DNA of 64,000 bases from Candidatus Omnitrophota bacterium (GTDB taxonomy: Bacteria; Omnitrophota; Gorgyraeia; Aquiviventales; Aquiviventaceae). Made by a program: the position numbers and the translations under genes. Positions 487-35,779 of this stretch are shown piece by piece. The notes under the pieces were generated by a model, which was not told the origin of the DNA, did not search any database, and saw only the letters and a program-made list of their open reading frames with translations. Location: the NCBI GenBank assembly GCA_023247255.1, contig JAHFGV010000004.1:20023-84022 (forward strand), read 5' to 3'. Each line of letters begins with the position of its first letter. Position 1 is the first letter of the stretch.

Positions 487-535
487 GGCCCAATCATTCC
501 TTCAGTTTTCTACGGTCATTTTCGTGTAGCTAAAT

Positions 536-1511: not shown

Positions 1512-1829
1512 TCAAACCGTTTCTATAACCGCAATCACCCTGTCGCTTGCTACACGAACGACTCCCCGTCGGATGGTGATCGACCGGCCGTCAATGGATA
1601 GTTCTCCCTTAACCAGTCGGCTCAGCAATGATCGGTGGAGAGGCAGGATTTCAAAAACCCCCTGCTCTCCTGGAAACGATAGGCTTTGGGCTCTTCCCTC
1701 AAACATCACTTGACTGGGGCTCACCACAAGAACCTCCAACTGTTTCTGCGCGGCTTTTTCCTTGACGTTGGGCATCGCACTCATCGATCCATCCGCTGTT
1801 CTGCAAAACGCAGAAAGGAGGGGGTCCAC
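1512..1829 (-). CDS. ATP synthase epsilon-chain-like protein (N-terminal beta-sandwich only)
   Basis: LEVLVVSPSQVMFEGRAQSLSFPGEQGVFEILPLHRSLLSRLVKGELSIDG fits the F1 epsilon N-domain pattern (l.ivtPe..vf.g.v..v..pg.eGe.giLp.H.pllt.L.pG). The C-terminal helical hairpin is absent. Start is likely at an internal Met (~1784). Confidence 0.5.
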   Translation of the reverse strand: MDPLLSAFCRTADGSMSAMPNVKEKAAQKQLEVLVVSPSQVMFEGRAQSLSFPGEQGVFEILPLHRSLLSRLVKGELSIDGRSITIRRGVVRVASDRVIAVIETV

Positions 1830-1908: not shown

Positions 1909-2714
1909 CTATGGCGCTACCTCCGGTCTTCCTCCCAGTACTTGATCCTGTGATTGGGATTGCGGGAATTGCGATGAACGCCCCTCCGAAAAAGTCGTGT
2001 GCTTTATCCGTCGATGCCAGGTGAAGAAGAACTGGCCGGCCAAGAGTCCCATAAAGATCACGATCAGGAAAATCACCAGCCATGTCGTTGTGGTTGAAGG
2101 GGCATCTGACTTGAGTGGAGATTCCTCAAGCATTTCCGGAATCGGCGGCCCGCCTGTGAATGACAAGAGCTTTTCCAGCCGCGTGAGATCATCTTTGATC
2201 TGTTCCAACATCAACAAGTTGCGTCGATAAGCACCGATCCGCTGCTTGCGACTGATCGTCTCATCTACTTGTATCTGCTCAATATTACTCAGCCGATTTA
2301 AGATGGATTCTCCCAGTGACTTAGCAGAATCAGCGTATTCGCTCTGTCCCAGACGTTTCAATATAAGCTCGGTCTGTGTTCGCAACCCAAGAATCTCCTC
2401 TGAAGGGATGAACCACACATCGCGCACAATAACCTCGAATACGCGCATTTGCTTGGGAGCCAACGTCACTTCTGGCTTGTGGACGTAGTAAAGGGATTTG
2501 TCCGTATCGAACTCCACCTCCATATCCCCTTGCTCTAAAATATCCGTTGGTTTGACCTCTTGGGGAAGATCGATACGGATAGGGACGGTCCGGTTTTTAT
2601 CGGAAGAGGGATTAACCGCAACAATACGTAGGGTCATCGGCTCTCGCTCAGCAACTATAGCCGCCTCGATGGAAGAAGTCATGAAGCCACAACCGATCAG
2701 CATCATTACCATGG
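1909..2714 (-). CDS. hypothetical lipoprotein/membrane protein with coiled-coil region and C-terminal TM helix
   Basis: The ORF is open to 3192, but the upstream 480 nt is a repeat array. The likely start is MVMMLIGCGF (lipobox-like LIGC) at 2712-2714. It has a coiled-coil middle and a C-terminal hydrophobic helix (WLVIFLIVIFMGLLAGQFFF). No homolog recognised. Confidence 0.45.
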
Positions 2715-3160: not shown

Positions 3161-6100
3161 TTATTGATAGATGACGTGAACCACCGGATCATCGATTCCT
3201 CCCAGCTTGTTCTCCATCAAAAGCTGCATCACCTCGGTTGCTCCTTGAACAGTATCTGTCTTCTTACGAATGTTTTGGATGGAGTCGGATTTCTCCAAAC
3301 CTTTCTCCACACCCATCTCCATGAGTTGGCTAAAATCATAGCCTTCATCCCCCGCCAAGGCACTGATCCGCTCGGCGACGTCGTTAATCGCCTGCTTCAT
3401 GCGGACGTTCGAGCCTTCTTCGGCCACTGCCTTGGGGATACGATCGATCCGTTGTTTGAGCACCTCGAGCTTTTGACCAAGTTGTCCATCACCTCCCAGG
3501 CTTCCCTGTAGATTCTTCACCGCTGTGTAGGTATCCTGGATCACTCCTCGTGAGGCACTGGAAGCAGCAATCTGTCCTGAGAGATCATCGAGAGAAGTCC
3601 CCGTGAACTGGAAAGAGCCTTGATCGAAGAACCCGGTGAGCGACTCGGTGACTAACGCGACCACCGACTTGCCTATCGGCACCAAGCTTCCGACCGATTC
3701 CGGAACGAGGTACTCGAAAGTAGTCACCTTCCCATCGCTGCCTACCTTCTTCATGGGGGTCTTGGCGGTCAGGACGACGCCATCCGCCGACAGTTCGATA
3801 AGCGGTGTCCAGTTATCCGCTCCAGCCAACTGAATGCTGATTGTCTCTCCAATCTTTGCACTGGTTTTCATCAGGAGTCGCCCCTCAGGACGTTTAACGA
3901 AGATCGTCCCCACCTGGAAACTCCCAATCGCATCATCCTTCACGGTAACGGTAATCGTTTTTCCAGGTTGGAACTTCGTTGCGGTTATCACCTGCTCCGC
4001 CAAGCCCCACTCGGAACTCCACTCGAACAGGTTCTGTGCACCGGAAATAGGCTGCATAGCGACTTCAGAAACCACCGCTATCTTGTCAAAGTTCTCAATG
4101 GTGATTTTGGGAGACAAACTGAGCCCCTGAGTATCGCGTGGGCCACGCCACCGAATGATAAGAGGAAGGCCTGTGTTGATTTCTTGTGGCGTTAGGAGCT
4201 TGGCACTTTGTTGATTGGCGACCGTCCTTAAATCGTTGGCTGTCGCCTGGCTTTGATTCGCAGCGCTGATGAGGGTATTGGAAGCCGTCTGGCTGTTTTT
4301 GGCCGCAGTATCCAGCGTGGATATCGATGTGCTGATGGAATGGGTGAAAGTGTCGAGGGTCCCTTGGATATCGGTACGCACCTGGGACAAGGGAACATCC
4401 AGATTTTTATTCACCTCATGTTTCACGTCTTGCAATTTCTGCTCCACATTAATGGTCAGCGTCCGCGGGGTTTTAAACACCCCTCCGGTTGCAATATTGA
4501 TCGTTGTGACTACGCTGTAAACCTTTCCTGCCGTGAGGGAGGTCGGACTCCAGGTGAAGTTGTACTGCGGACTGGAGTAGAAACCCAGGGCATTCGGAGG
4601 GCCATTAGCAACGAATGATTGGATAAGGGTCGCGCCATCGTAGATGTCCACTTGACAGAGCACCGGGCCGGTCACCGTTGAGCCGTCGCGACGAAGCGTG
4701 GAAGTCACGGTAAGAGAGTCGGCAACTGCAGCAATAGGTGGATTAAGATTCGGCAGTGCTTGGACCGCAGGCACGTAAGCAAATTCCGTCACCGCCTCCC
4801 AGATATGCACCACTTGCGTTTCCATGAACACATCCAAGGGCGCCGTTTCCGGATAGTCTCGGTCGACCACGAAGTTAAGTGTCTGATCTCCATAGGACAC
4901 ACGGCTGAACTTAGCCGACCAGGAACCATATTGAAGCGGTTTGTCCTTGATGATCGAGGACAACCCGGACTCAGTCCAAGTGTAGGCAGGCGGTTGCGTC
5001 GAGCCAGGCTGGCTAGGCGTACCGGCACTGACCGTTAACTGATCCAGGTGGTTGTTGGTCAGAAGATCTCGAACGCGGAACGAAACCTTGTACAAATCAA
5101 TTTTAAAGTCGGCATCCGACTGATCCGACACCGTTACATCAGCGGTATTCACCACACGCACACGGGAAGTCATCGAGACGGTATTCGGCACAAGCCAATT
5201 GTAACTTCCAGTGTTCGTCAGCAAAGCCACGATCACGTTGCCTGCAGGATAGGTGGCACCACCGTCGGTCGAATACTCAAGTTTTACGGTAGGCAGGGTG
5301 CCGGCTGTCGTCCATGAAATCGTACGTATTTCATTCACTACCCAGCGCTCGAGCCCATTCGGCGTGACAATGTTGAGGCGTCCCTGGATCTTGAAATCCG
5401 CATTGGAAACATCAGAAACATTGGCATCGTTGACATCTTCAATACGGACCCTGACAGCCGAAGAAATGCTATCCGGGACCATCCAGGCATAGTTGAAGGT
5501 ACCGCTGGAGCCCACCCCATTGGGAGCCGAATTCGCGATTACGTCGGAATACGTGCTTCCGCTGTTAGTCGAGTAGGTCAGTTTGACGTTCGGAATCGTA
5601 CCACCCCAGCTCCAGGCAATATTTCGGCTCTCACCGACACTCCAAAGCTCTCCACCGTTGGGTGCGCTGATCGTAAAGTTACCCTGGATATTAAAGCTCG
5701 CATCGGAGGCGTCGAACACCGTGGCATCACTCACATCCTCAACTTTGACTCGTGCCATCGTGGTGGGTGCATCTGCCACCGTCCAGGGATAGAAGGTCGG
5801 ATTTGCAGGAGTCGATGCGACGATGACGTTCGGATAGGTCGTGCCTGCGTCCGTTGAGTAGGTGATCTTCACGTTTGCAATCGACCCGAGCCTCAGCCAA
5901 CTGATGTCTCGCAATTGGCCTATCGGGAAGTTTTCGCCGCCATTGGGATTCGTGATGGTGAGGCTGCCCTGAATCTTAAAGTTCCCGTCCGAAGCGTCGT
6001 TGGCGTCGGAATCAGTCGAGGACGACACCCGGATACGCACTTGTGTGGAGATGGCGTCTTCCACCGTCCAGGTGTACGCGCCTGTGTTTTGGACCACGCC

Positions 6101-9100
6101 GTCATTTAGGGTCTGATAGTTTTCTTGAATGGGTTGGTATGCGGTCCCACCGTTAGTGGAAAGTTCCAACTTCACTAAGGATACGGTACCTGTATTCGTC
6201 CAGGCAATAGTCCTGGACTGAGCCACCGTCCAGATTTCGGCACCGTTGGGCGCGGTCAGGGTAAAACCGGCCTTGATCTTGAAGTCCGCATTCGAGATAT
6301 CGTTGGCTGTCGCATCGACAGGATCACTCAAACGCACACGGCCCTGGGCGGTAATCGTATCTGGAATCGTCCAGGCAAAGGTACCATTGTTAGGAGTCAG
6401 ACCAGCGATTGTCGTCCATGTGCCGCCGGAATTGGTGGAATACTCAATCTTGGCATTGGATACCGAACCGGTCTTAGCCCATGTAATGTTCTGCACACTT
6501 CCTACCACCCATTGCTCGGTCCCGTTAGGAGCAGTCACCGTGAAGTCTCCAGTAATGCGGAAATCGGCATTGGAGTCGTCCAAAGCTCCAATATCATTCG
6601 GATCGGACACCCGCACCCGAACTGTGTTTGAGATGGCATCTGGAACCGTCCACCCGTAGCTGCCGATACTGGGGGCGCTAGCGTTGATGGTCTGCAAGTC
6701 GGCGTTGAAGCCATCGCGGGAGTACTGGAGCTTGACATTCGGAATCGTGCCCACGATTCCCCAGGTGATGTTCTGAACCTGCCCCACCCGCCACTGCTCG
6801 GCACCGTTCGGTGAGGTCAAGGTGAAGATTACCCGTATTCGGAAGTCGCCATCCGAGGTGTCGAAGGCCTCGGCATCGGTTGTCTGCGATACACGCACCC
6901 TCACGCTGCCGGTCACATTGTCCGGTACGGTCCATCCGTAACTGCCGGTGTTGCTGGTTGAGCTTGTAATCAGGTTCGGGAAACTCGAGCCACTGTCTGT
7001 AGAATAGTCGATCTTCACGAAACTAACCGTACCGTTCGTCAGCCATGTGATTGTCCGCGCGCTGCCTACTGCCCACACTTCACCGCCGTTGGGCGCGGTC
7101 ACTGTAAAACCTGCTTGGATCTTAAAGATGACATCGGAGGCGTCATTGACGGTGGCGTCGTTCGTATCGCTGACCTTGACCAGACAGTTGGTTGAAATAT
7201 TGTCAGGGATAGCCCAGGCGAAGCTACCCGTATTGGATGTGGATGCGGTGATGGGGGCGTAGAGGCCGCCGCCATTCGTTGAAAATTCCAGTTTAACGAA
7301 CGGAATGGATCCGTTTCGATCCCATGTAACCGTGCGAACCGAGCCGACGGTCCATTTCTCCCCGCCGTTGGGGGCCGTGATCCGCAGGAAACCTTGAATC
7401 TTGAAATTAGTGTTTGAGGCGTCGCTAGCCGTGGTATCGTTCACATCCGATACCTTGAGGCGCGCGGCTGTCGTAATGGCGTCTGGGATCGTCCAGGCGT
7501 ACGTGCCAATATTCGCTATCGAAGATGCAACGACGCTCGGGTAGGTTGCCCCACCATCCGTAGAATATTCAAGCTTAACGTTCGCCACAGTCCCTGCACT
7601 GATCCAGGTGATGTTCTGTACACTGCCCACCGTCCAGGCTTCGCCTCCGTTGGGGGCGGTGACTGTGAAACCGGCCCGGATCTTGAAGTTGCCGTTGGAG
7701 GTGTCAAAGGCATCAACGGTATCGGTGACATCCGACACACGGATTCTCACCGTCGCTGAAATCGCATCGGGAACCGTCCACGCAAAGGTCCCTGTGTTGG
7801 GCGCGGAGGTGGCGATCCCGTTGGGATACGTGGTGCCGCCATTCGTCGAATACTCAAGCTTGACGTTGGCCACCGTCCCCGCAGTCGTCCAAGTAATACC
7901 CTGACTCACTCCAACCACCAACACCTCGCCTCCGTCCGGTGCTGTCATTGCGAAGCTGGCCTTGACTTTGAAGTCCGCATCCGAGGCGTCGAACGTACCG
8001 GCATCGGCCGCATTGGATACGCGAAGGCGCATAGTCGTGGTGATTGCGTTCGGAATCGTCCAGTTGTAGCTGCCCGTATTTGACGAAGCGGCCGTGATGA
8101 CGTTGGGATAGCTAGAACCCCCGTCCGTCGAGTACTCGAGCCTGACGTTGGGTATCGTCCCAAAGGTCGACCATAGGATGGATTGTGTCGTACCGACGGT
8201 CCATTTCTCCCCACCGTTGGGAGCCGTCAGGTTGAAGCTACCACGAATCGTGAAGCTGGCGTTTGACTCGTCATAGACCGTCGCATCCGTCACGTCGGTA
8301 ACCTTTACCTTCACCGTGGTCGATATCGCATCCGGAATGGTCCATGCAAAGGGCGTTCCAGTCGTCGCGTTGAGCGACGTGGCAATGAGGCTGCCAACCG
8401 GATAGGTCGTGCCACCGTCTGTTGAGTATTCGAGTTTAACATTGGCGATCGAACCGGCTTTGGTCCAGCTAATGTTCTGGTTGGATTCAACGGTCCAAAT
8501 CTCTCCCCCGTTGGGCGAGCTCAAGGTGAGGGACCCCTTAATCTTGAAGTTGGCGTTGGACTCGTCATAGGCATCCGGATCCAGCACATCTTCAACCTTG
8601 ACCCGCAACGTCGTTCCGATCGCATCTGGAATCGTCCAGGCATAGGACCCCGTGTTTGTCGTCGATGCGCTGATCGCGTTGGGATACGTCGTGCCACCAT
8701 TGACAGAGTAAGAGAGTTTCACATTGGCAACGTTGCCCACCGTTGTCCAGGTAATGTTGCGGGTTTCCCCAACGACCCAGACTTCCCCACCGTTGGGGGA
8801 ACTGAGCACGAACCCCCCCATGATCTTGAAGTTAGCGTTGGAGGCGTCAAACACAGTGGAATCCGATACATCGGTGATCCGGACTCGAACCTGTGTGCTC
8901 GTGGTGGTTCCCAAGACCCACGCGTAGCTGAGGGCACTGGCAGGGGTAGTCGCCACGATCAAGTTAGGATAGGTTGTTCCACCGTCGGTTGAGTATTCCA
9001 GCTTAGCGTTGACCATCGATCCGGTCTTGGTCCAGGTAATCGATTGTGTGGAACCGGCCGGCCACTTTTCTCCCCCGTTAGGCGATAGGAGCGTAAAAGA

Positions 9101-12100
9101 ACCGGCGATCTTGAAATTGCCGTTTGATGCGTCGAACACCGTAGAATCCGACGTATCGGTAATCTTGACTTTCACCGTGGAGGACATGTTGTCGGGAGTC
9201 GTCCAGGCAAAGCTGAGTGCCGAAGCGCTGACTGAGGAAGTAATCGCGCTCGGATAGCTCACCCCACCATCGGTGGAGTAGTCCAAACGTGCCGTGGCGA
9301 TTGAACCCGTCTTCGTCCAGGTGATGTTCTGGGTCGCACCAACGATCCAAACCTCCCCGCCGTCCGGCGCGGTGAGGGTGAAGGAACCGGCGATCTTAAA
9401 GTTCCCATTCGATGTGTCATTTACGGTTGCATCCGTCAGATGAGTGATTTTCACTCTAACCGTCGATGAAAGGGTGTCCGGAATCGACCAGACGTAACTG
9501 AGCGCAGCGGCTGGACTCGAGAGTGTAATGACATTCGGGTATGTCGATCCGCCGTCGGTGGAGTACTCAAGCTTCACAGTGACAATGGTACCGGTCTTCG
9601 CCCAGGTAATGTTCTGGGAGGAGCCGACGATCCATGTCTCGCCACCGTTGGGGGCATTGAGCGTCAAGGATGCCTTGATCGTAAAGTTGGCATCTGAAAC
9701 ATCCACCACAGTCGCATCGTTCTCATCGCTGATTTTGACCTTCAGGCTGGTGTTAATAGCATCAGGGATCGTCCAGGCATAGCTCAGCGGCGCCGCAGGT
9801 GCCGATGCAGTGATCAGATTCAAATAGGTCGTCCCACCATCCGTTGAATATTCGAGCTTCACGTTCGCAAAGGAACCCGTTCGCGTCCACGTAATGTTCC
9901 GGGAGGCACCGACGATCCAGACTTCAGCGCCATTGGGTGAGGTGAGGGTCACCGACCCCTTGATCTTGAAATTGGCGTCCGAAACATCTGTCACAGCTGA
10001 GTCACCCGTATCCGTGATCTTCACCCTGACCCCTGTTGAAAGGGCGTCCGGCACGATCCACGCGTAGCTCAGCGTCCCGGCCGATGTGGAAGCCGTGATG
10101 AGACTGGGATAGGTCGTGCCTCCATCGGTCGAATAGCGCAACTCCACGTTCGGAAAGGATCCTGTCCGCATCCAAGTGATAGCGCGACTCTCCCCCACCA
10201 CCCAGACCTCGCTACCGTTTGGTTCACTCAGAGTCACGGAACCCCGGATGTTGAAGTTCGCGTTCGACTCATCGTACACGCTGGAATCCGCTGTATTCGT
10301 TACCTTGATCTTGGCCTGCGTCGTTGGCGTATCGGGAATCACCCACGCGTAGGGAGTCCCCGTCGTTGCTGAAACCGACGCCACGATCAAATTCGGATAG
10401 CTCGTACCCCCATTGGTGGAATATTCGAGTTTCACGTTGGCGATCGAGCCGGTCCTCGTCCAGGTGATGTTCTGCGTCGTCGCGATGAGCCATGCCTCCG
10501 CCCCATTGGCAGCGGTGACGGTCAGGCTACCTGCGATCTTGAAGTTGGTGTTCGAGATATCAAACACAGAGGAGTCGCTCACATCGGTCACCTTGACGCG
10601 GGCGGTGGTTGTGATCGCGTCGGGAATCGTCCAGCTATAGCTGCCGGCCGATGCAGAAGTGGAGGCCAGGATGACATCCGGATAGCTGACGCCACCGTCG
10701 CTTGAGTATTCCAACTTCACATTGGCAATCGAACCGACCTTGGACCAAGTGATTGGCTGGCTTGCCCCAACAATCCACGTTTCGCCGCCATTCGGGGCAT
10801 TGAGTGTCAGCGAACCCTTAATGGCAAAGTAAGCGTTGGAGACAGCGCTCACCGTAGGATCGCTTACGTTGCTCAAGCGGACTTTCACCGTATTGCTAAT
10901 AGCGTCAGGAATCGTCCATGCGTAAGCAGACGGCGTGGACGGCACCGAGGCGGTAATCAGGAAGGTCTGCAGTTCATCGGCAAAACCGTTCTTCGAATAC
11001 TCGAGCTTCACGTTCGGAATGGTCCCAGTCTTTGTCCAGGTGATGTTCTGGGTATCAGCCACGACCCATATCTCACCACCATTCGGCGCCGTGACGGTGA
11101 GGGAACCCTTGATACCTAAGTTGGCATTAGAATCATCGAAAACACTCGTGTCACCCGTGTCGGTGATGCGAACCTTTACGGTGTTTGAAATATCATCTGG
11201 AATCGTCCATGTGTAACTCAGGGTAGCGGCAGCGGTGGAAGCAATGATGACTTTTCCCGGATCCGGCCAGGTGATACCACCGTCAGTCGAATACTGCAGC
11301 TTCACATTTAAGATCGAGCCAAATTTCGTCCAGGTGATGTTATAGGAGGAGCCGACGATCCATACTTCACCCCCATTGGGTGCTGTAATCGTCAACAGAC
11401 CCTGGATCTTGAAGTTCGCGTTGGATTCATCAAAGACCGTGGAATCCGACACATCACTCACCCGCACCTTCACCGTTGTGGCTGGGGCATCCGGAATGGT
11501 CCAGGCATAGGGGGTACCGCTCGTTGCAAAGACTGAGGCGATAATCAAATTCGGGTAGGTGGCGCCGCCATCGGTTGAGTATTCCAGCTTCACGTTGGCA
11601 ATAGAGCCCATCTTTGACCAGGTGACGTTCTGAGTCGTTGAAATGGGCCAGGCTTCACCGCCGTTGGGCGAAATCAACAACAAGGAGCCGCGGATCTTGA
11701 AGTTACCGTTTGACACATCGAACGCATTGGCATCCGACGCATCGCTGATACGAACCTTGACTGTAGTCGAGATCGCATCGGGCACGGTCCAGGCGTAGGT
11801 GCCGGTGTTTGAAGTCGAGGCAATAATGAGATTCGGGTAGGTAGCGCCGCCATCCGTCGAGTATTCGAGCTTAACGTTCACCACGGAGCCCGCGGTCGTC
11901 CAGGTGATGTTGCGACTTTCCCCGACCGCCCATACCTCCCCGCCGTTCGGTGAGGTCAGGACAAAACCACCCATAACTTTGAAGTCAGCGTTGGAAGTAT
12001 CGTAAACCGTCGAGTCCGAGGCATCCGTAACCTTCAGCCGTACCGTTGCAGAGATCGCGTCGGGAATCGTCCACGCGTAGATACCGGTGCCGGCTCCCGT

Positions 12101-15100: not shown

Positions 15101-18100
15101 GGCCCAGGTGATGTTCCGACTATCGTTGACGATCCACGTCTCACCGCCGTTGGGTGAACCCAACGTCAGTGTTCCCTTAATGGTGAAATTTCCGTTGGAG
15201 GCATCCGTCACGGTGTTGTCGTTGACGTCGGTAATCCGGACGCGCAGATCGGTATCGATTTCATCCGGAAGGGTCCAGGCATAGCTGAGATTCGCGGCAG
15301 GCGTTGATGCGGTGATCGCAATGGGAAACGTGGCACCGCCATCCTTTGAGAGATCAAGCTTCGCGTTGGCGATCGATCCCCCTCGTGTCCACGTAATGTT
15401 TCGGCTCTCGCTGACTTTCCAGACCTCGCCACCGTCCGGTGCTTGGATGAAAAGCGATCCCTTGATGCTGAAATTCGCATCCGATGGGTCCGTTACATTC
15501 GTGTCGTCGAGCTGGGTGATTCGGACACGTCCCTGCGTGGTCGGGTTATCCGGAACGGTCCAAGCATAACTCGTATCCGTAGCAGGAACCGTGTTGCTGA
15601 TCAGATTGCCCACGGGATAGGTCGTACCACCATCGGTCGAATATTCGAGCTTGAGATTCCCAGTCAGTGTTCCCGTCTTCACCCAGGTGATATTCTGTGT
15701 CGCGTTGATCGGCCAGCCTTCATTACCGTTAGGTGCAGTGACGGTAATCGAGCCACGAATCGTGAAGTCGGCATCCGAGGTGTCGTTTAGGTCGAGGACA
15801 TCGGGTGTGGTGTCGTAGGTAACCTTCACGCGCCGCGTGGTCCCGATAGAATCCGGAATGGTCCAGGGATAGCTCAGATTTCCACCCGATGTGGAGGCGA
15901 CGATAAGATTCGTATAGCTCACACCACTGTTGGTTGAGTACTCCAACTTAACGTTCGGTAGCGTTCCCGTCTTGGTCCAGGTAATGTTTTGGGTCGTCCC
16001 CACAACCCAGGACTGGCCTCCGTTAGGAGCCGTCAAAGCAAGGGAACCCCTGATGGTGAAATCTGCATCGGAGGCATCGATGACCGAAGCATCTGAGGCA
16101 TCACTGATCCGGATCCGGCACTGGGCGCTGATGCCATCGGCCACTATCCAGGTGTAGCTACCGGCGCCCGCAGGCGTTGAGGAGACGATGACATTGCCGG
16201 CAGGCCATGTTGAGCCGCTGTCCGTCGAGTATTCCAGTTTTGCGTTGGCGATAGCCCCCAGGGTTGTCCAGGTAATGTTCTGGGGATCTGCGACTACCCA
16301 AGTCTGGCCGCCGTTGGGCGCTGTGATGGTCAGTTTGCCCTTTAGCCGAAAGTTATTCTCTGACGCATTTGCCGCAGCCTTACCTGCCGTGACCGGTGTG
16401 ATTCTCACCCGGGCTGTCGTCGATAGGGGCGCATTAGACGGAATCGTCCAGGCATACTGCCCGTTATTCCCACCAGTCGGTGGATCGGTATCCGATGGGG
16501 TAGAGGCAATGATGAGGTTCGGGTAAGTAGATCCTCCATCCGTCGAGTACTCCAGTTTGACGGCCCCTACCGTACCGGTGAGGTTCCAGGTAATGTTCTG
16601 GCTCGTCCCAAGCTCCCAAACCTCTCCGCCATCAGGAAAGGTGATGTTGAGAGATCCTTGTATCGTGAAGTTGGCGTCCGATTCATCCGTAACAGAAGTC
16701 TCGTTGAGGTATACGATCTTAACCCGCAGATCATTGTCGATCGCATCGGGGACGGTCCATGCGTAGCTGCCAGCGGTAACCGCCACGGAATTAGTAATCA
16801 TGTTGCCTGGATCGGGGTAGGTCGCCCCGCCATCCGTCGAGTAAAGCAACTTGACGTTGCCACTCAAGGTGCCGGTCTTCGTCCAGGTAATGTTCTGCGT
16901 ATCTCCGACTACCCAGCTCTGACTCCCATTGGGTGCCGTGAGGGTTAACGTACCCTTCACCGTGAAGCCGGTGTCCGAATCATCGTAGACCGTGCTGTCG
17001 GCCGCATTCTCCAAGCGCACTTTAACATTCGTTCCAATGATGTCGGGAACAGGGTTCCAGTTGTATGAACCCACATTCGAGATCGACGCTCCACCTGCAA
17101 TCGGGTTGCTGAAAGTAGCGCCATCGGTGGCGTAGTAGAGCTTTACGCCGGAGACGGTCCCATTCGTGTTCCAGGTAATGTTCCGGGTCGTGTCCCCAAC
17201 AAACCAGATAAGATTCGTATTGGGCTGCGTCACGGTGAGCTGGCCTTTGATCGTGAAGTTGGCATCCGAGGTATCGAAGACCGTGGTGTCAGTGACCAGC
17301 GTCACCTTAACGCGAAGCTGAGTCTCGATAGCATCTGGGATCGGGTTCCAGTTGTATGACAGCGCGCTGGCAGCCGTGGTGCTGTTGATCAGGGTGTCGT
17401 AACTTGTACCACCGTTGGTCGAGTAACGCAGCTCGACATTGCCGGCCATCGAACCCGTGGTTCCCACTCGCGTCCACGTAATGTTGCGGTTCGTCTCGCC
17501 GACCTTCCAGACCTCGCCGTTGTTGGGTGCAACGAGGGTCAGCGTTCCCTTGATGGAAAAGTTGGCATCTGATTGATCCTCAACACTCGTATCGGTCACC
17601 AACCGCACGCGCACCCGGATATCGCTGTCGATGTCATCCGGGGTGGCCCAGTTGTACGGCGTACCGGAGACTGGATCCAAACCCGTGGCAATCAGTTTGC
17701 CTGCTGGAAACGTCGCCCCGCCGTCCGTTGAGTAGTGCAGCTCTACGTTGCCAATCGAACCGGTCTTGGTCCAGCTGACCGGACAGGATTGGCCGACGGT
17801 GCAGGTGCCACCGCCATTGGGCGCTCCCAAGACCACGGTCCCCTTGATGGAAAAGTTGGAGTCTGAGGCGTCATCGGCGACGTTAACGGTATCTGAAGGA
17901 ATAACTCTGACTTTCACCGTGTTGTTGATCCCGCCGGTGACATCAGGAATCGGAGACCAGCTGTAGCTCCCGCTTGCCCCTCCGATCGGAGTCGAGGCCA
18001 CAATGACATTCGGGTAGGTGCTGCCTCCATCCGTCGAATAGCGAATTTCCACTGTGCCAGAGACCGTGCCGTTGTTGTTCCAGGTGATGTTGCGCGAGCT

Positions 18101-21043
18101 ACCAATCGGAAAGACGTCGCTGCCGTTGGGGGAAGTCACCTGAACGGCTCCCTTGATTCGAAAGACGTTGTTGGAGGTATCAAAGATGGCGGGCGCATCT
18201 ACATTGCTGATCTTGACGCACGTGTTGCCACCGATGGCATCCGGAATCGTCCACGGGAAGCTTCCGGCCGAGGCCAGCGTCGATGCTACGATCGATGTGT
18301 ACGTACCCCCGCATCCTGTGCTTGAATACTCCAACTTCACGTTATTGACGCCAGTACCGTTGATGGTCCAGGTAATGTTCTGCGTGGTGCCGACAAGCCA
18401 CACCTCGGTTCCACTGTTAGGGCTGTCGACGACAATCGAGGCCACGATTGTGAAATCCGCATCGGATTCATCGAACGTCGTGGCATCCCCGTTTTGCTCC
18501 ACTTTAATTCGCGAGAACGACCCGATTGCAGCAGTCGGAATGGTCCAGGCATAAGTACCCGTTGCCGAAGCGGCTGTCACGATCGTATCTCCGTTTGGCG
18601 CTGCGTAGGAACCCCCACTGTTCTTGGAATAGTAGATGTTCACGCCTGTGGGGGGCAATGTTCCGGTAGAGGTCCAAGTGATGTTGTAGGTCTTTAGGGT
18701 TTCCCAGTTCGGGCTCTGGGGTCCGTTTGGCGTAGTGACGGTGATTCGCCCTTTAATGCTGAAATCAATGTCGGACTGGTCGTTTACACCTGAGGCATCT
18801 GAGGAAAGTTCGGCACCGACCCGTAGGTCGGTGCGAATCTTGTCCGGAACCGGTGTCCAGTTGTAGGTCCCGACGCTGGGAGTCAACCCTGTCGCAATCG
18901 TGCTATCGAAAGTGGTACCGCTGGCTGTATAAAGCTTCAACGTCACGGTGCCGTTGTCATCCAAGTTCCCCGTCCGACCCCATGTGATTGTGCGGCAGTT
19001 CGCTCCAGGACAAGAGTCGCCTACGAACCAGGACACCGCGGTGTTCGGAGAGGTCACCGTGAGTGTTCCTTTAACAGTGAAGTCGGCATTGGAAACATCA
19101 GAGTTCCGAACGAGCAGGTCCAAGTCGGTGATCTTCACCCTCAATGTAGACACGTCGAGATCCGTCGCCCCAATGCTCGCGGGAATCGTCCAGGGAATGG
19201 TATCCAGATTCGCGCAGACGTCGGAGGCAATGCCCAACGGGTAGGTGCTGCCGCCGTTCGTTGAAAGCTCAATCTTCAGTCTGTGTGCAGGCCCTGCTGA
19301 ATTGCACGTTCCACTTGATTCCAGCTCGGCGGCGTGCTTCCAGGTGATATTGTGGCTCTCTCCGACTTTCCATACCTCGCTGCCGTTGGGGCTTTTGACA
19401 GTCAACGGCGTAAACTCAGTGACGAAATATTGGACATCGGCTGCAATCGCCGCAGCGATGCTCTGGTTGGTTCCTGAGCGCACGCTGGCAAAAGTGGTCG
19501 AGGTGGTGGCCGCTCCAATTGGCGGTAGCAGCTCCACGGCAAACCCAAGATCATCCGCATAGTCTCTGGTCGTGTTGCTGGAACCTGTCGCCGTCGTTGT
19601 CGCTGCTCCAAGAACCAGTGTCCGGCTAGGTCTCACCGCGGTGAGTGAGGCGGTTTTCTGAGCCGGTAGAACATAGCCAGTCGTGCCACCGGCTCCCAGG
19701 CCGTGCGAAGCAGAACCGCTCAGTTTCAACTGTGTGGATGTGCAGGCGGGTGAGCAGTCGCTGCCGGTAAGAACGTGCCAGTTACCGTTCACTGGGTTGC
19801 TGACGGAACCCCCAACGCTATGGCCGCTTACATTGATCAGATCGCCGGTACTCAAGCCGTGAGCAGCGCTTGTCGTTATCATGATCGGCGTAGCGTCCGT
19901 CGATGAAGAAATCGCAATGCGGGCGGGTGTGCCGCCCGTGCCGCCTCCCCAGGAGTGGGTGCCTTTTTGAACCAAGCTGATTCCATCGATGAGATCCACA
20001 ACGTGGTAGCGTATACGTCCCTCGCTATTTGTGTTGGTCGACGCATAGCCTCTGGTAAAAGTAATGGTGGTGCCGCTCGTTACTGTGCCCCGAGCGTAGA
20101 TTTGATTGTCCCATCCTGCTATCCCTGAGCCACCGGTGAAAGAGGTGAACAACAACGCGTTCGCCCCGCCGCTGGAAAGACCAGGGCTCAGGGGCCCGGA
20201 GTTGACAGGCAGCGGCCCTCCACCGTCGGGATCCAGTCCGTTGTTCGTGGCGGTTTGGTTCGTGGCTGCGGTGCCAGGCACCGGCAGCGAGACTATCCCG
20301 GTGTAAACTGTCGTATCCGTCAAAAACTCGATGACCTGCCACACGATCTGAGTGGCTTTGGTGCCTGTGCCAGCAAACCGCTCGACTCTCAGATTGGAGT
20401 TATCGATAAACGAAGGGAGTAGGTAGAGTTGATGCGTCTGGTTTTGGCTGGTGAAGGCGCCTTTGGTCATGACAATCGGCACGGCGTGACAGGGAAAGGT
20501 TATGGGAGTACACCCGCTCGTATCCAACGCCATCGGGATAGTGATGGTCTTGTTCAAGTCTGTCGGCTGCAGGCTCGAAATGCCTCGCTGTACGCTGACT
20601 CCATCGACGAACTCAATAACCTGCCAGGAGACGCTCGCGCCGCTGGTGCCACCCCCACGCTCGATGTCAATGGTGTTGTTATCCTCAAACTGGGCGACGA
20701 AAAACCAGTTCTGATCGCGTTGTTGGCTAATGCTGTCGGCTTCGGTAGACAGCAAGATGATGGATTTGGATTGGTCCACCGGGTAGGTCAGGTTGATGGC
20801 TTGAACGACGTCGTCCGTGTCAAAGTTGGCGATGCCGCTTTGTATCCTTTTAATCTGCACGGCTTCTGCAAGGGGGCCCCAGAAACTCCAGATGAGGACA
20901 GCAATGAGCGCTGTCCAACCGGCGAGAAACCGTGGAACAAAAACGGTCGGTCGCGCCCGTACAGGCCGCATCAGAAAATCAGGGGCGTCATTGCTGTGCA
21001 TCATCAGCATCTGTGGGAATGCCTTCCGAAAGCTCCGGCTCAA
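3161..21043 (-). CDS. giant repetitive cell-surface protein (~5,960 aa; ~50 tandem Ig-like/Kre9_KNH-like ~85-90-aa repeats; adhesin/S-layer-like)
   Basis: Single uninterrupted 17.9-kb ORF. The N-terminus has a hydrophobic signal or anchor (FLAGWTALIAVLIWSFWGPLAEA). The probable start is MRPVRARP at ~20971, which removes the overlap with the upstream lipoprotein gene. A ~640-aa unique N-region precedes about 50 repeats of consensus GSLTLTAPNGGExWxVGxxQNITWTxxGxIxNVKLEYSTDGGxTYPNxIxAST...YAWTIPDAIxTxxRVRVSDxxDxTVxDxSDANFKI. A ~900-aa unique C-terminal region is Ser/Thr- and coiled-coil-rich. Confidence 0.85.
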   Translation of the reverse strand: MSRSFRKAFPQMLMMHSNDAPDFLMRPVRARPTVFVPRFLAGWTALIAVLIWSFWGPLAEAVQIKRIQSGIANFDTDDVVQAINLTYPVDQSKSIILLSTEADSISQQRDQNWFFVAQFEDNNTIDIERGGGTSGASVSWQVIEFVDGVSVQRGISSLQPTDLNKTITIPMALDTSGCTPITFPCHAVPIVMTKGAFTSQNQTHQLYLLPSFIDNSNLRVERFAGTGTKATQIVWQVIEFLTDTTVYTGIVSLPVPGTAATNQTATNNGLDPDGGGPLPVNSGPLSPGLSSGGANALLFTSFTGGSGIAGWDNQIYARGTVTSGTTITFTRGYASTNTNSEGRIRYHVVDLIDGISLVQKGTHSWGGGTGGTPARIAISSSTDATPIMITTSAAHGLSTGDLINVSGHSVGGSVSNPVNGNWHVLTGSDCSPACTSTQLKLSGSASHGLGAGGTTGYVLPAQKTASLTAVRPSRTLVLGAATTTATGSSNTTRDYADDLGFAVELLPPIGAATTSTTFASVRSGTNQSIAAAIAADVQYFVTEFTPLTVKSPNGSEVWKVGESHNITWKHAAELESSGTCNSAGPAHRLKIELSTNGGSTYPLGIASDVCANLDTIPWTIPASIGATDLDVSTLRVKITDLDLLVRNSDVSNADFTVKGTLTVTSPNTAVSWFVGDSCPGANCRTITWGRTGNLDDNGTVTLKLYTASGTTFDSTIATGLTPSVGTYNWTPVPDKIRTDLRVGAELSSDASGVNDQSDIDFSIKGRITVTTPNGPQSPNWETLKTYNITWTSTGTLPPTGVNIYYSKNSGGSYAAPNGDTIVTAASATGTYAWTIPTAAIGSFSRIKVEQNGDATTFDESDADFTIVASIVVDSPNSGTEVWLVGTTQNITWTINGTGVNNVKLEYSSTGCGGTYTSIVASTLASAGSFPWTIPDAIGGNTCVKISNVDAPAIFDTSNNVFRIKGAVQVTSPNGSDVFPIGSSRNITWNNNGTVSGTVEIRYSTDGGSTYPNVIVASTPIGGASGSYSWSPIPDVTGGINNTVKVRVIPSDTVNVADDASDSNFSIKGTVVLGAPNGGGTCTVGQSCPVSWTKTGSIGNVELHYSTDGGATFPAGKLIATGLDPVSGTPYNWATPDDIDSDIRVRVRLVTDTSVEDQSDANFSIKGTLTLVAPNNGEVWKVGETNRNITWTRVGTTGSMAGNVELRYSTNGGTSYDTLINSTTAASALSYNWNPIPDAIETQLRVKVTLVTDTTVFDTSDANFTIKGQLTVTQPNTNLIWFVGDTTRNITWNTNGTVSGVKLYYATDGATFSNPIAGGASISNVGSYNWNPVPDIIGTNVKVRLENAADSTVYDDSDTGFTVKGTLTLTAPNGSQSWVVGDTQNITWTKTGTLSGNVKLLYSTDGGATYPDPGNMITNSVAVTAGSYAWTVPDAIDNDLRVKIVYLNETSVTDESDANFTIQGSLNITFPDGGEVWELGTSQNITWNLTGTVGAVKLEYSTDGGSTYPNLIIASTPSDTDPPTGGNNGQYAWTIPSNAPLSTTARVRITPVTAGKAAANASENNFRLKGKLTITAPNGGQTWVVADPQNITWTTLGAIANAKLEYSTDSGSTWPAGNVIVSSTPAGAGSYTWIVADGISAQCRIRISDASDASVIDASDADFTIRGSLALTAPNGGQSWVVGTTQNITWTKTGTLPNVKLEYSTNSGVSYTNLIVASTSGGNLSYPWTIPDSIGTTRRVKVTYDTTPDVLDLNDTSDADFTIRGSITVTAPNGNEGWPINATQNITWVKTGTLTGNLKLEYSTDGGTTYPVGNLISNTVPATDTSYAWTVPDNPTTQGRVRITQLDDTNVTDPSDANFSIKGSLFIQAPDGGEVWKVSESRNITWTRGGSIANAKLDLSKDGGATFPIAITASTPAANLSYAWTLPDEIDTDLRVRITDVNDNTVTDASNGNFTIKGTLTLGSPNGGETWIVNDSRNITWAKTGTIPNVKLEYSTNGGTTYPNVIVSSTAGSSLSFAWTIPDSIGTQLRVRITNVDDVTVTDDTNANFTIKGSVTLTAPNGGETWIVGSSQNVTWTKQGSIANVKLEYSKNGFADELQTFTIVASTPAAPLSYAWTIADAIGAQLKVRVSDASDSTVNDVSNTNFTIKGALTLTAPNGAELWTVNSSRAVTWTRTGSITNVKLEYSTNSGSTYPNLITASTDAATGTYAWTLPDAITATAKVRVSDTSDATVQDESNAVFKIVGVLTLTAPNGGEKWTVGNSQNVTWTRIGSIANAKLEYSTDGGTTYPNLIVATTVASSLSYAWTIPNTPSATVKVKVSDVDFPSDVSDVSDANFKIKAGLTLTAPNGGEVLTVGSAQNITWTTVGTAANVKLEYSADGGSTYPNVITASASNSGSYSWTVADAISTTVRVKVSDAADTDAFDTSDVNFKIRGSLLLTAPNGGEGWQINTVQNITWTRTGSLPNVKLEYSTNGFSDELQTYVITASAPADPPPVDNNGLYAWTIPNTPSATVKLRVSDASDATVSDLSNANLSIKGSVTLTAPNGSEVWVVGATQNVTWNVFGAITNVKLQYSTDGGATWPAGNLITASTSANTDPPVGADNGQYSWTIPDVIGTQLRVRVSDAADASVFDDSDANFKIRGSITVSAPNGGETWIVGASQNIAWTRTGSFANVKLEYSTNGFSDELQTFLISASAPASPLNFAWTVPDAIGTTLKVRASDAADITVVDISNAHFEIKGSLTVTSPNGVEVWKVGESRNITWTKTGTIATVKLEYSTNGGTTYPNIIASSTSATSGSYTWSVPDAIGTQLRVKITHTGDATVNDASNANFEIKGQIALTSPNGGEVWIVGTSQNITWTKQGTFATVKLEYSTDGGSTYPTVISASADAVTGTPYAWTIPDAIGTQLRVNVTSNADTTVNDASDANFKIVGSLTLIAPNGSEAWAVGTSQNVSWTKVGSITNVKLEYSTNGGTSYPNLITASTGAGTGIYAWTIPDAISATVRLKVTDASDSTVYDTSNADFKVMGGFVLTSPNGGEVWAVGESRNITWTTAGSVVNVKLEYSTDGGATYPNLIIASTSNTGTYAWTVPDAISTTVKVRISDASDANAFDVSNGNFKIRGSLLLISPNGGEAWPISTTQNVTWSKMGSIANVKLEYSTDGGATYPNLIIASVFATSGTPYAWTIPDAPATTVKVRVSDVSDSTVFDESNANFKIQGLLTITAPNGGEVWIVGSSYNITWTKFGSILNVKLQYSTDGGITWPDPGKVIIASTAAATLSYTWTIPDDISNTVKVRITDTGDTSVFDDSNANLGIKGSLTVTAPNGGEIWVVADTQNITWTKTGTIPNVKLEYSKNGFADELQTFLITASVPSTPSAYAWTIPDAISNTVKVRLSNVSDPTVSAVSNAYFAIKGSLTLNAPNGGETWIVGASQPITWSKVGSIANVKLEYSSDGGVSYPDVILASTSASAGSYSWTIPDAITTTARVKVTDVSDSSVFDISNTNFKIAGSLTVTAANGAEAWLIATTQNITWTRTGSIANVKLEYSTNGGTSYPNLIVASVSATTGTPYAWVIPDTPTTQAKIKVTNTADSSVYDESNANFNIRGSVTLSEPNGSEVWVVGESRAITWMRTGSFPNVELRYSTDGGTTYPSLITASTSAGTLSYAWIVPDALSTGVRVKITDTGDSAVTDVSDANFKIKGSVTLTSPNGAEVWIVGASRNITWTRTGSFANVKLEYSTDGGTTYLNLITASAPAAPLSYAWTIPDAINTSLKVKISDENDATVVDVSDANFTIKASLTLNAPNGGETWIVGSSQNITWAKTGTIVTVKLEYSTDGGSTYPNVITLSSPAAALSYVWSIPDTLSSTVRVKITHLTDATVNDTSNGNFKIAGSFTLTAPDGGEVWIVGATQNITWTKTGSIATARLDYSTDGGVSYPSAITSSVSASALSFAWTTPDNMSSTVKVKITDTSDSTVFDASNGNFKIAGSFTLLSPNGGEKWPAGSTQSITWTKTGSMVNAKLEYSTDGGTTYPNLIVATTPASALSYAWVLGTTTSTQVRVRITDVSDSTVFDASNANFKIMGGFVLSSPNGGEVWVVGETRNITWTTVGNVANVKLSYSVNGGTTYPNAISASTTNTGSYAWTIPDAIGTTLRVKVEDVLDPDAYDESNANFKIKGSLTLSSPNGGEIWTVESNQNISWTKAGSIANVKLEYSTDGGTTYPVGSLIATSLNATTGTPFAWTIPDAISTTVKVKVTDVTDATVYDESNASFTIRGSFNLTAPNGGEKWTVGTTQSILWSTFGTIPNVRLEYSTDGGSSYPNVITAASSNTGSYNWTIPNAITTTMRLRVSNAADAGTFDASDADFKVKASFAMTAPDGGEVLVVGVSQGITWTTAGTVANVKLEYSTNGGTTYPNGIATSAPNTGTFAWTVPDAISATVRIRVSDVTDTVDAFDTSNGNFKIRAGFTVTAPNGGEAWTVGSVQNITWISAGTVANVKLEYSTDGGATYPSVVASSIANIGTYAWTIPDAITTAARLKVSDVNDTTASDASNTNFKIQGFLRITAPNGGEKWTVGSVRTVTWDRNGSIPFVKLEFSTNGGGLYAPITASTSNTGSFAWAIPDNISTNCLVKVSDTNDATVNDASDVIFKIQAGFTVTAPNGGEVWAVGSARTITWLTNGTVSFVKIDYSTDSGSSFPNLITSSTSNTGSYGWTVPDNVTGSVRVRVSQTTDAEAFDTSDGDFRIRVIFTLTSPNGAEQWRVGQVQNITWGIVGTIPNVKLQYSRDGFNADLQTINASAPSIGSYGWTVPDAISNTVRVRVSDPNDIGALDDSNADFRITGDFTVTAPNGTEQWVVGSVQNITWAKTGSVSNAKIEYSTNSGGTWTTIAGLTPNNGTFAWTIPDTITAQGRVRLSDPVDATANDISNADFKIKAGFTLTAPNGAEIWTVAQSRTIAWTNTGTVSLVKLELSTNGGTAYQPIQENYQTLNDGVVQNTGAYTWTVEDAISTQVRIRVSSSTDSDANDASDGNFKIQGSLTITNPNGGENFPIGQLRDISWLRLGSIANVKITYSTDAGTTYPNVIVASTPANPTFYPWTVADAPTTMARVKVEDVSDATVFDASDASFNIQGNFTISAPNGGELWSVGESRNIAWSWGGTIPNVKLTYSTNSGSTYSDVIANSAPNGVGSSGTFNYAWMVPDSISSAVRVRIEDVNDANVSDVSNADFKIQGRLNIVTPNGLERWVVNEIRTISWTTAGTLPTVKLEYSTDGGATYPAGNVIVALLTNTGSYNWLVPNTVSMTSRVRVVNTADVTVSDQSDADFKIDLYKVSFRVRDLLTNNHLDQLTVSAGTPSQPGSTQPPAYTWTESGLSSIIKDKPLQYGSWSAKFSRVSYGDQTLNFVVDRDYPETAPLDVFMETQVVHIWEAVTEFAYVPAVQALPNLNPPIAAVADSLTVTSTLRRDGSTVTGPVLCQVDIYDGATLIQSFVANGPPNALGFYSSPQYNFTWSPTSLTAGKVYSVVTTINIATGGVFKTPRTLTINVEQKLQDVKHEVNKNLDVPLSQVRTDIQGTLDTFTHSISTSISTLDTAAKNSQTASNTLISAANQSQATANDLRTVANQQSAKLLTPQEINTGLPLIIRWRGPRDTQGLSLSPKITIENFDKIAVVSEVAMQPISGAQNLFEWSSEWGLAEQVITATKFQPGKTITVTVKDDAIGSFQVGTIFVKRPEGRLLMKTSAKIGETISIQLAGADNWTPLIELSADGVVLTAKTPMKKVGSDGKVTTFEYLVPESVGSLVPIGKSVVALVTESLTGFFDQGSFQFTGTSLDDLSGQIAASSASRGVIQDTYTAVKNLQGSLGGDGQLGQKLEVLKQRIDRIPKAVAEEGSNVRMKQAINDVAERISALAGDEGYDFSQLMEMGVEKGLEKSDSIQNIRKKTDTVQGATEVMQLLMENKLGGIDDPVVHVIYQ

Positions 21044-21422
21044 GACTCGGTGCTGGTGCTCGACTGACCAAGGCCAACCGAATCGCAGTCCGCGATGAGC
21101 GGCTATACTTTCCCTGACCGTCTTTCATGAGTATCTCCCGATATTCCACCAGGACGGTATCGCCGGAATGAATCTCTCCTATCGATGAGATCCCTTGCAG
21201 TTTAAGCTTGGAATCGAAGGGCAGGTACAGCTCGCTTGCGCCCGTCTCCGTGCGGGAGTGCTCAACGGCAACGCCATGATTGTTGATCGCAGAAATGGTA
21301 CCCTGTAGGAGTTTAAAACTCGTGTATCCTTCTTCAACCCCAGCCCATACACCTGCTCCAAAACCACAGAGGCAGCTGTAGATCACGATCCCTAAAAACA
21401 GTTTTTTAGTCATAGGATTCAC
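20988..21422 (-). CDS. hypothetical lipoprotein (144 aa)
   Basis: Signal peptide with Cys (MNPMTKKLFLGIVIYSCLCGFGAG). It sits directly upstream of the giant gene and overlaps it. No recognisable family. Confidence 0.5.
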   Translation of the reverse strand: MNPMTKKLFLGIVIYSCLCGFGAGVWAGVEEGYTSFKLLQGTISAINNHGVAVEHSRTETGASELYLPFDSKLKLQGISSIGEIHSGDTVLVEYREILMKDGQGKYSRSSRTAIRLALVSRAPAPSLEPELSEGIPTDADDAQQ

Positions 21423-29712: not shown

Positions 29713-29750
29713 TTAAGGTGTTCCTTTTCTGGAAGTGAAAAGCAAAGTTT

Positions 29751-32550: not shown

Positions 32551-32578
32551 TGCAAAATCGCACGCTTTCCTCTCGTCT

Positions 32579-35778: not shown

Positions 35779-35779
35779 G

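Follow-up and report, generated by a model that had tools for sequence, protein, structure and literature searches.

Bacteria of the phylum Omnitrophota are widespread, mostly ultra-small and uncultured, and are thought to be attached to, or to prey on, other cells; their genomes carry enormous genes that are largely unannotatable. We here analyze a giant gene located at positions 3161-21043 of a 64,000-nt stretch of a Candidatus Omnitrophota genome (contig JAHFGV010000004.1, positions 20,023 to 84,022; hereafter "the window", whose numbering is used for all positions). The gene encodes a protein of 5,960 amino acids (aa) with a Sec-type signal peptide and 49 tandem immunoglobulin-like (Ig-like) repeats. 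We propose, with a probability of roughly 0.55, that this protein is a fibrillar adhesin tethered to the inner membrane by its C-terminus and perhaps threaded through an adjacent secretin.

Giant adhesin-like open reading frames (ORFs) beside loci resembling type II secretion systems (T2SS) or type IV pili (T4P) have been published for Omnitrophota (West-Roberts et al. 2023, bioRxiv 10.1101/2023.11.21.568195; Seymour et al. 2023, PMC10066038; Nielsen & Lui 2026, bioRxiv 10.64898/2026.06.07.730766). They share with the gene studied here the phylum and the general theme of a long, repeat-rich exported protein encoded after a secretin-containing locus, for which a role in cell attachment has been proposed; the present gene, too, is preceded by a T2SS/T4P-like locus in an Omnitrophota genome. 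However, the published surveys used cut-offs of >20 kb or ≥10,000 aa (also >30,000 aa), and our gene, at 17.9 kb and 5,960 aa, lies below them. The published giant genes encode numerous transmembrane (TM) helices, whereas the protein described here contains a single signal peptide and lacks internal TM helices; the SecA-DEAD, C39, dockerin and enzyme domains of the published genes were all absent from the slices of the protein that we scanned against Pfam (head, first repeats and tail). PilZ and sugar-import genes lie downstream of the published genes, whereas an anchor gene and an ATPase operon are found here. The words Kre9, Ig-like and secretin are not used in the three reports. The family described below is a new and well-delimited one within a known Omnitrophota theme.

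In its general plan the protein resembles the repeats-in-toxin (RTX) adhesins of type I secretion systems (T1SS), such as LapA, MpIBP and SiiE, in which a stalk of tens of Ig-like beta-sandwich repeats carries a tip while the other end is retained at the cell. These adhesins have a C-terminal T1SS signal, whereas the giant protein has an N-terminal Sec signal peptide and no RTX repeats, and its stalk domain is of the Kre9_KNH type, unlike theirs. The polarity also appears to be reversed, with the C-terminus of the giant protein tied to a single-pass inner-membrane protein and the RTX adhesins held by an N-terminal plug in an outer-membrane pore. The repeat unit itself scores above the gathering threshold of PF10342, the Pfam family founded on the fungal proteins Kre9 and Knh1, which function in beta-1,6-glucan synthesis. 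Since the fungal proteins carry one N-terminal copy each, whereas the giant protein uses the same fold 49 times as a structural stalk, we draw no functional inference from this likeness. The T2SS provides another comparison, as it combines Sec export with a GspD-type secretin, a GspE/PilB-type ATPase, a GspF-type platform and pseudopilin-like neighbors. Here, however, the machine scores below the equivalog cutoffs, its ATPase carries an MshEN domain, an AAA_22 ATPase and a tetratricopeptide repeat (TPR) protein accompany a secretin resembling that of mannose-sensitive hemagglutinin (MSHA) pili, and the putative cargo is a 620-kDa rod that would remain fixed to the inner membrane.

A conserved giant gene with 49 Ig-like repeats

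A first-pass annotation of the window had described a single uninterrupted ORF of ~5,960 aa at this place, which we confirm and assign to the minus strand (the strand had not been stated). The probability of encountering no stop across 5,960 codons, computed from the base composition, is ~1e-101, and the remaining two minus-strand frames contain 202 and 233 stops. Translation most likely starts at ATG 20971 (M25) or ATG 21010 (M12), giving a mature product of ~620 kDa with an isoelectric point of 4.6. A profile built from the repeats delineated 49 contiguous units with a period of 93-112 aa and a mode of 95; the approximately 50 Kre9_KNH-like repeats reported earlier are thus about right in type and number, but not in their period, which had been given as 85-90 aa. 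The HMM scan of the repeat suggested at that time matched PF10342 (Kre9_KNH) with an E-value of 1e-28 and 100.3 bits for a 1,033-aa slice, as compared to a gathering cutoff of 24.6. Searches of the PDB by sequence with the repeat block, head, tail and anchor retrieved nothing meaningful. Enrichment in N-glycosylation sequons was not supported (98 N-x-S/T sites, versus 92 ± 9 in shuffled sequences), and the conserved NITW motif of the repeats is probably structural.

The source contig (121,763 nt) comes from a short-read MEGAHIT k141 assembly (record k141_1983974, ENA ERZ27276474), and one relative, L002, shows a break in its frame; these two facts could point to an assembly artefact, or to a decaying pseudogene, produced by collapsed or mis-joined repeats. 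We consider the probability of this to be close to nil. The repeats share on average 49% identity at the protein and 55% at the DNA level, with a maximum of 69% at the DNA level, and the longest exact repeated DNA word in the array is 27 nt, far under the assembly k of 141, so that the array is too diverged to collapse. Identity between repeats at the three codon positions is 0.61/0.68/0.38 (chance level 0.29), in line with the earlier observation that strict protein periodicity on diverged repeat DNA suggests purifying selection. The same pattern appears between organisms: an orthologue at locus L005 is colinear with the giant gene over 2,728 codons at 71.5% aa identity, and the DNA identity by codon position is 0.78/0.83/0.44. 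These patterns therefore indicate old duplications maintained under purifying selection, with individual repeats being orthologous between organisms. Furthermore, independent assemblies also yield colinear orthologues of 5,733-6,910 aa. Given the diverged repeats, the open frame and the colinear orthologue, we reject both the artefact and the pseudogene explanations: the giant gene is real, conserved and under selection. The opposite (plus) strand contains 43 stretches of 80 aa or more without a stop, together with 22 SPP[LF]G motifs that mirror the APNGGE motif of the repeats, corresponding to the long antisense "SPPLGA-type" ORFs that had been pointed out before.

Relatives of the protein were hard to retrieve, with word-indexed protein searches returning only two for the head and one for the tail, and exhaustive HMMER and DNA-pattern scans were needed. 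Scanning species genomes with a pattern derived from the head alignment revealed 4 loci, in two Omnitrophota metagenome-assembled genomes (MAGs), one MAG labeled "Planctomycetales" and one labeled "bacterium", and the same scan of metagenomes yielded 48 loci. An exhaustive HMMER search with the tail recovered 122 clusters at 50% identity, 53 of them with E-values below 1e-30. Full-length relatives with head and tail in common include one of 6,457 aa, with 56 repeats, and one of 6,910 aa, which has 58. The genes called independently on two further contigs (L054 and L055) encode proteins of 5,733 and 5,901 aa; P0144, L054 and L055 also match PF10342. All 52 related loci except L003 and L015 are open to the end of the sequence or contig, six of them over at least 3,645 aa. 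The exceptions, together with L002, were localized: L002 (Omnitrophota MAG JAQURC010000009) has one frame switch at 15627-15763, L003 has a stop at 9617, about 30 nt before the contig end, and L015 has a stop at 17083 that is found in only one of two otherwise matching contigs (L015 and L016). These breaks are probably assembly or sequencing errors. As for the lineage, the named close homologues of the window secretin (57-72% identity) all belong to Candidatus Omnitrophica.

Exchangeable heads, a conserved tail and a separate anchor

The only hydrophobic segment of the giant protein spans aa 33-52 and belongs to a Sec-type signal peptide, with a predicted cleavage site between AEA and VQIKRIQ; the "N-terminal signal or anchor" of the first-pass annotation is thereby specified. 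The predicted mature N-terminus, (A)VQIKR[IV]Q.G (aa 62-68, 20840-20860), is near-invariant across the family, to the extent that it sufficed as a search pattern. Such conservation directly at a cleavage site suggests a recognition or docking function.

The head that follows had been described as a unique region of ~640 aa with two WQVIEF submodules. It contains both copies, but it measures 477 aa and has a third, degenerate copy: its three beta sub-modules end in W/YxV[IV][ED][FL] at aa 140, 235 and 346, with WQVIEF at the first two positions. The structure predictions that had been proposed for the unique regions were run on the head and the tail, and gave models of low confidence. An AlphaFold model of the head, based on a very shallow alignment, has a mean predicted local distance difference test (pLDDT) score of 45.7, with values of 66-84 in the first ~190 residues, and is similar to single-chain C1q/TNF-like trimers and to H-type lectin or phage receptor-binding modules; it thus weakly suggests a three-lobed, C1q/lectin-like knob. 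A distant head-like module is carried by P0002, a surface protein sorted by the type IX secretion system (T9SS) through PF18962. In L003 (4326-9617), a propeller-like repeat region of ~330 aa (YVTN/NHL-like by eye) replaces the Gly-rich part of the head, and P0228 (6,941 aa, 55 repeats) has a different N-terminus of ~1,190 aa (LamG/ConA-like by eye) and a divergent tail. As judged by these sequence comparisons, the heads are modular and exchangeable among relatives.

At the other end, the earlier description of a ~900-aa, Ser/Thr-rich, coiled-coil-like tail does not hold. The tail comprises 651 aa, is lower in Ser/Thr than the repeats, and is predicted to contain two beta domains, a helix of ~65-80 aa, more beta domains and a helical C-terminal region (AlphaFold mean pLDDT 41.6, again from a very shallow alignment). 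It has no Pfam match. Its C-terminus, ...GATEVMQxLMExKLGGxDxPVVHVxYQ, is kept to the last residue in the family and here reads ...DDPVVHVIYQ.

The gene directly downstream codes for a protein of 267 aa that ends in a TM helix followed by basic residues, and which we term the anchor protein. The listed ORF at this place (1909-3192) opens with translated repeat elements, and the true start is most likely ATG 2712. The anchor protein is 44% identical (E = 4e-54) to an extension of ~250 aa that follows the tail in P0144. In the family at large, 57 of the 122 tail clusters stop exactly at the tail C-terminus, as in the window, while 34 (34 of the 91 informative ones) run on into an anchor homologue with its TM helix and basic residues. 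The fusion of the two in 34 clusters indicates that tail and anchor work together and that the fibre is anchored at its C-terminus. Moreover, since the fused giant protein has both a signal peptide and a C-terminal TM helix, its C-terminus should lie at the cytoplasmic membrane and its head at the far end. The element that anchors the protein to the cell would be a TM segment supplied by the next gene, and not a classical motif. The separate anchor gene is newly noted here, and both the family and this mode of anchoring were previously undescribed.

The gap between the stop of the giant gene and the anchor gene is occupied by three tandem copies (2729-3138) of a palindrome-rich dispersed element of ~130-145 nt (repeat families D15, D17 and D20). 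Further copies are found at 23729-23850, 27894-28015, 61419-61547 and 62061-62338, lying within the 901-aa ORF, at the junction of the TPR and secretin genes, and near tRNA-Gly and tRNA-Leu genes. When translated, the element gives rise to motifs such as NPA[IV]APRPKA and IENRKSKIEN, and it is this translation that inflates ORF 1909-3192.

Known sorting signals were searched for by motif and Pfam scans, which ruled out T1SS/RTX, LPXTG, T9SS C-terminal domain and S-layer sorting and agree with the earlier statement that no T1SS, LPXTG or T9SS signal is evident. GG.G.D (RTX) motifs are absent from the giant protein. There is no C-terminal LPXTG, the sole LPxTG being internal at aa 796, and Pfam finds no T9SS sorting domain (e.g. 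PF18962) in the tail. A PEP-CTERM signal is also missing, a judgement made by visual inspection alone of the C-terminal residues, together with the lack of a Pfam match in the tail. The C-terminus of the giant protein has no TM segment and hence does not show the TM-plus-basic-tail ending of LPXTG- or PEP-type proteins, and the Pfam scans found no S-layer homology (SLH) or other S-layer domain. No genes for an ATP-binding cassette (ABC) transporter, membrane fusion protein or TolC were seen near the giant gene, whose neighbors are secretin, type IV filament, accessory and F-type ATPase genes.

Genes surrounding the giant gene

The features of the locus are listed in the following table.

Features of the giant-gene locus in window numbering (listed from the lowest position)
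Feature	Position	Strand	Description
F-type ATPase operon	1..1829	minus	directly downstream of anchor gene
alpha subunit N-terminus	1-489	minus	
b/delta fusion	536-1303	minus	
c subunit	1272-1511	minus	
epsilon subunit	1512-1829	minus	
Anchor gene	1909..2712	minus	267 aa; signal peptide, beta domain, helices, C-terminal TM helix, basic residues
Giant gene	3161..21043	minus	5,960 aa; one terminal stop at 3161-3163
Tail	3164..5116	minus	aa 5310-5960 (651 aa); mixed beta and helix
Stalk	5117..19429	minus	aa 539-5309; 49 Ig-like Kre9_KNH repeats
Head	19430..20860	minus	aa 62-538 (477 aa); three beta sub-modules, then Gly/Thr-rich domain
Sec-type signal peptide	20861..20971	minus	aa 25-61; predicted cleavage after ...PLAEA and before VQIKRIQ
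144-aa small exported protein	20988..21422	minus	directly upstream of giant gene in most related loci
476-aa protein	21427..22857	minus	RAYT/IS200-like N-terminal domain (RAYT, see text), TM segment, periplasmic C-terminal domain
901-aa signal-anchored coiled-coil protein	23272-25977	minus	SMC-like heptad matches only; in-frame copy of dispersed element
229-aa exported protein	26115..26804	minus	C-terminal domain of ~110 aa in common with 476-aa protein
Secretin sub-module	26864..31330	minus	block kept upstream of giant-gene homologues
TPR protein	26864-28030	minus	secretin sub-module
Secretin	28027-29712	minus	secretin sub-module; MSHA-like
228-aa protein	29751-30437	minus	secretin sub-module
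AAA_22 ATPase (ExeA/MshM type)	30392-31330	minus	secretin sub-module
Type IV filament machine, rest	31900..40468	minus	present here, absent at this position in closest relatives
PilO-like	31900-32550	minus	
PilM-N-like	32579-34162	minus	
Three pilin-like proteins	35095-37290	minus	
Major pilin	37187-37648	minus	
GspF/PilC-like platform protein	37652-38725	minus	
PilB/GspE-like ATPase	38732-40468	minus	with MshEN domain

Upstream of the giant gene, and on the same strand, transcription runs from two histidine kinases through a PilB/GspE-like ATPase, a GspF/PilC-like platform protein, a pilin, three pilin-like proteins and PilM-N-like and PilO-like proteins to the AAA_22 ATPase, the 228-aa protein, the secretin and the TPR protein; these are followed by the 229-aa exported protein, the 901-aa coiled-coil protein, the 476-aa membrane protein and the 144-aa exported protein. 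The gene annotation hence bears out that the giant gene lies downstream of, and co-oriented with, a type IV filament/secretin cluster. All machine proteins scored below the NCBIfam equivalog cutoffs, the best scores against their cutoffs being 601/676 bits for PilB, 576/630 for GspE, 322/424 for GspF, 255/284 for PilQ and 167/250 for MshL. Judged by its domain composition, the machine belongs to the type IV filament systems but is divergent, and it shows MSHA-like traits (MshEN, AAA_22 and TPR).

To examine which of these genes accompany the giant gene, we inspected related loci, following an earlier proposal to check for co-occurrence with pilQ clusters. In the constant core, the giant gene is preceded by the gene of the 144-aa protein, and this in turn by that of the 229-aa-type protein, of the 476-aa protein, or by both. 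The AAA_22 ATPase, 228-aa protein, secretin, TPR protein and 229-aa protein are found directly upstream in 9 of the 15 loci for which 7.5 kb or more of upstream sequence is available, and the closer relatives L054 and L055 also carry this secretin module upstream, with all genes co-oriented. In these two, a TPR protein and a LysE-family protein stand where the window has the genes for the pilus ATPase, platform, pilins and PilMNO. Since L054 and L055 keep only the secretin block, the conserved partner appears to be the secretin sub-module and not the whole pilus machine, and since the motor genes are absent at this position in both, the adjacency of a full type IV filament seems to be lineage-specific. 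The expected co-occurrence therefore holds for the secretin module, but the machine as a whole is not conserved. It is only this genomic linkage that ties the giant gene to the GspD-type module.

Other genes are seen upstream of homologues that lack an adjacent secretin. L031 (1-7776) has surface-glycan genes, namely a DegT aminotransferase, a radical SAM/SPASM protein, GT4, WbqC, PIG-L and a WecA-like glycosyltransferase; L019 (3502-7398) has a GldG-like ABC_transp_aux/ABC-2 protein and DUF4340; and L006 (3360-4811) has a B12-binding radical SAM protein.

Several of the accessory proteins recur at fixed places. The gene of the 229-aa protein has a conserved position between the TPR gene and the giant-gene module, and the 476-aa protein adjoins giant-gene homologues in dozens of loci. 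The transposase-like domain of the latter (Pfam E = 9.5e-6; NCBIfam E = 1.9e-13, below cutoff) has apparently lost its HUH motif, the sequence reading LLPDSIELCL, which suggests a domesticated domain of the type found in transposases associated with repetitive extragenic palindromes (REP-associated tyrosine transposases, RAYT) with a role in the fibre system. None of the related loci contained a match to the 901-aa protein, and only short gaps occur at its position in L054 and L055; the ORF therefore appears to be an insertion specific to the window or a fusion of ORFs.

The MshEN domain of the pilus ATPase is of the type that binds cyclic di-GMP (c-di-GMP), and the two histidine kinases (40882-44990, minus strand) precede this ATPase; one of them is a hybrid with receiver, PAS and GGDEF_2-like parts. 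These domains hint at second-messenger control of the locus. Inside the pilus cluster, ~930 nt (34162-35095) lack an ORF of at least 100 aa, and their translation motifs (CRLSIVDCRLKNTTNRQSKI) resemble the dispersed element; this region could be the remains of a gene or, alternatively, a spacer, rich in such elements, between two transcription units of the cluster.

The F-type ATPase operon downstream of the anchor gene has an unusual order (epsilon, c, b/delta, alpha), with no gene for the "a" subunit before c. The fragment of the alpha subunit that falls within the window aligns well with ordinary F1 alpha subunits.

Proposed mechanism and competing explanations

The export route and the function had been left open in the first-pass annotation. 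Its core reading of the giant exported repeat protein as probably an adhesin or a fibre is supported by the present analysis, and given the fusion of tail and anchor, the anchoring can no longer be regarded as fully open. In the mechanism we propose, Sec would export the giant protein N-terminus first, and its domains would fold outside the cytoplasm. The tail would then dock onto the anchor protein, whereas in the fused relatives the TM helix would itself act as a stop-transfer anchor; this would keep the C-terminus at the cytoplasmic membrane and place the basic residues that follow the TM helix on its inner side. At ~4 nm per Ig-like domain, the 49 domains would form a stalk of ~0.2 µm by our estimate, and the head would be projected outward as a distal knob, probably for binding to host or prey cells via a carbohydrate or surface ligand. 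Since LptF/G genes occur within the window, an outer membrane is expected, and crossing it through the co-encoded secretin, aided by the two or three conserved small periplasmic proteins, seems most plausible; this is the weakest step of the scheme. The adjacent filament machine, through its c-di-GMP-type MshEN ATPase, may control how the fibre is assembled or extended, and the swapping of heads seen in relatives (propeller-like insert, LamG-like head) would direct an unchanged stalk and anchor to new targets. The tandem stalk of 49 contiguous Ig-like repeats is what would be expected of a fibrillar adhesin, and a distal binding head is supported by the presence of a head-like module in the T9SS-sorted P0002 and by the exchange of heads in L003 and P0228.

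Several points weigh against this scheme. We know of no secretin that carries a protein remaining tethered to the inner membrane, and both surface exposure and the plausible passage through the secretin are predictions. The linkage of giant gene and secretin is frequent but not obligatory, since 6 of the 15 loci have no secretin within 10 kb and carry glycosylation or ABC-transporter genes instead. That tail and anchor dock non-covalently when encoded separately is inferred only from their fusion in relatives. As for the tip, the head matched nothing in Pfam or NCBIfam and contains no ligand-binding Pfam domain, and because the confidence of the head and tail models is low, the lectin/C1q likeness is only a lead.

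The protein might alternatively form an envelope coat or sheath, that is, a membrane-tethered structural layer, periplasmic or S-layer-like, that makes no use of the secretin and has no specific adhesin role. A C-terminal inner-membrane anchor by itself would only place the protein at the cytoplasmic membrane, the loci that lack an adjacent secretin carry cell-surface glycosylation genes in its place, and a "coat" role was proposed for another Omnitrophota giant protein (PMC10066038). However, an acidic rod of 49 domains with an exchangeable terminal head has the look of a stalk with a tip and not of a lattice former, SLH and S-layer domains were not found, and the secretin module stands beside the gene in most loci; we hence regard a coat as possible but doubtful. 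Export without retention, in which the protein would be a T2SS substrate shed through the secretin, for example as a matrix or biofilm fibre, would account for the Sec signal peptide, for a giant polypeptide that itself lacks a TM segment, and for the adjacent GspD/E/F-like set with its pseudopilin-like genes. That so many clusters have the tail joined to a TM anchor nevertheless argues for retention at the cell, as does the conservation of the split-form tail up to its last residue, and free release thus seems very unlikely.

More elaborate explanations assign the fibre to a powered organelle. Seymour et al. (PMC10066038) reported that type IVa pilus (T4aP) clusters and genes for non-respiratory F-type ATPases occur together across Omnitrophota, and they related the latter to the type-2/3 ATPases behind the gliding of Mycoplasma. 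The gene order in the window, with the type IV filament, secretin module, giant gene, anchor and epsilon/c/b-delta/alpha genes all on one strand, matches the reported co-location, and by analogy the giant fibre could be the leg or tether of an attachment or motility organelle mechanically coupled to the filament machine and/or the ATPase. The likeness to the Gli349/Gli521 legs and F1-like motor of Mycoplasma mobile is one of analogy only, consisting of large membrane-anchored surface proteins near F-type ATPase-like genes; the bacterium studied here is a diderm with LptF/G, and the linkage is seen in one locus. Furthermore, the ATPase adjacency was observed in this window only, as no related locus reached the 3' end of the giant gene; the alpha fragment resembles ordinary F1 alpha, its "symbiotic" type being putative; and the pilus motor genes are absent at this position in the closest relatives. 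A leg of this kind therefore appears quite unlikely. The boldest version would be a new kind of envelope-spanning organelle, in which a rod of ~0.2 µm, tethered to the inner membrane covalently or non-covalently by its C-terminus, passes through a dedicated secretin, ends in an exchangeable lectin-like head and is coupled mechanically or energetically to the filament motor and/or a non-respiratory F-type ATPase, forming a single-polypeptide "pilus" or leg with which nanobacteria would catch, hold or move on host cells; we consider it unlikely, and offer it as speculation.

Our preferred reading, a C-terminally tethered fibrillar adhesin, would most likely provide the cell with a long tether for grabbing other cells. 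The family is tractable, as it has a definable head, stalk, tail and anchor protein and few helper genes, and its tail is shared by at least 122 clusters. If a tethered fibre indeed crosses the secretin, this would represent a new use of secretins, and a surface filament made from one polypeptide.

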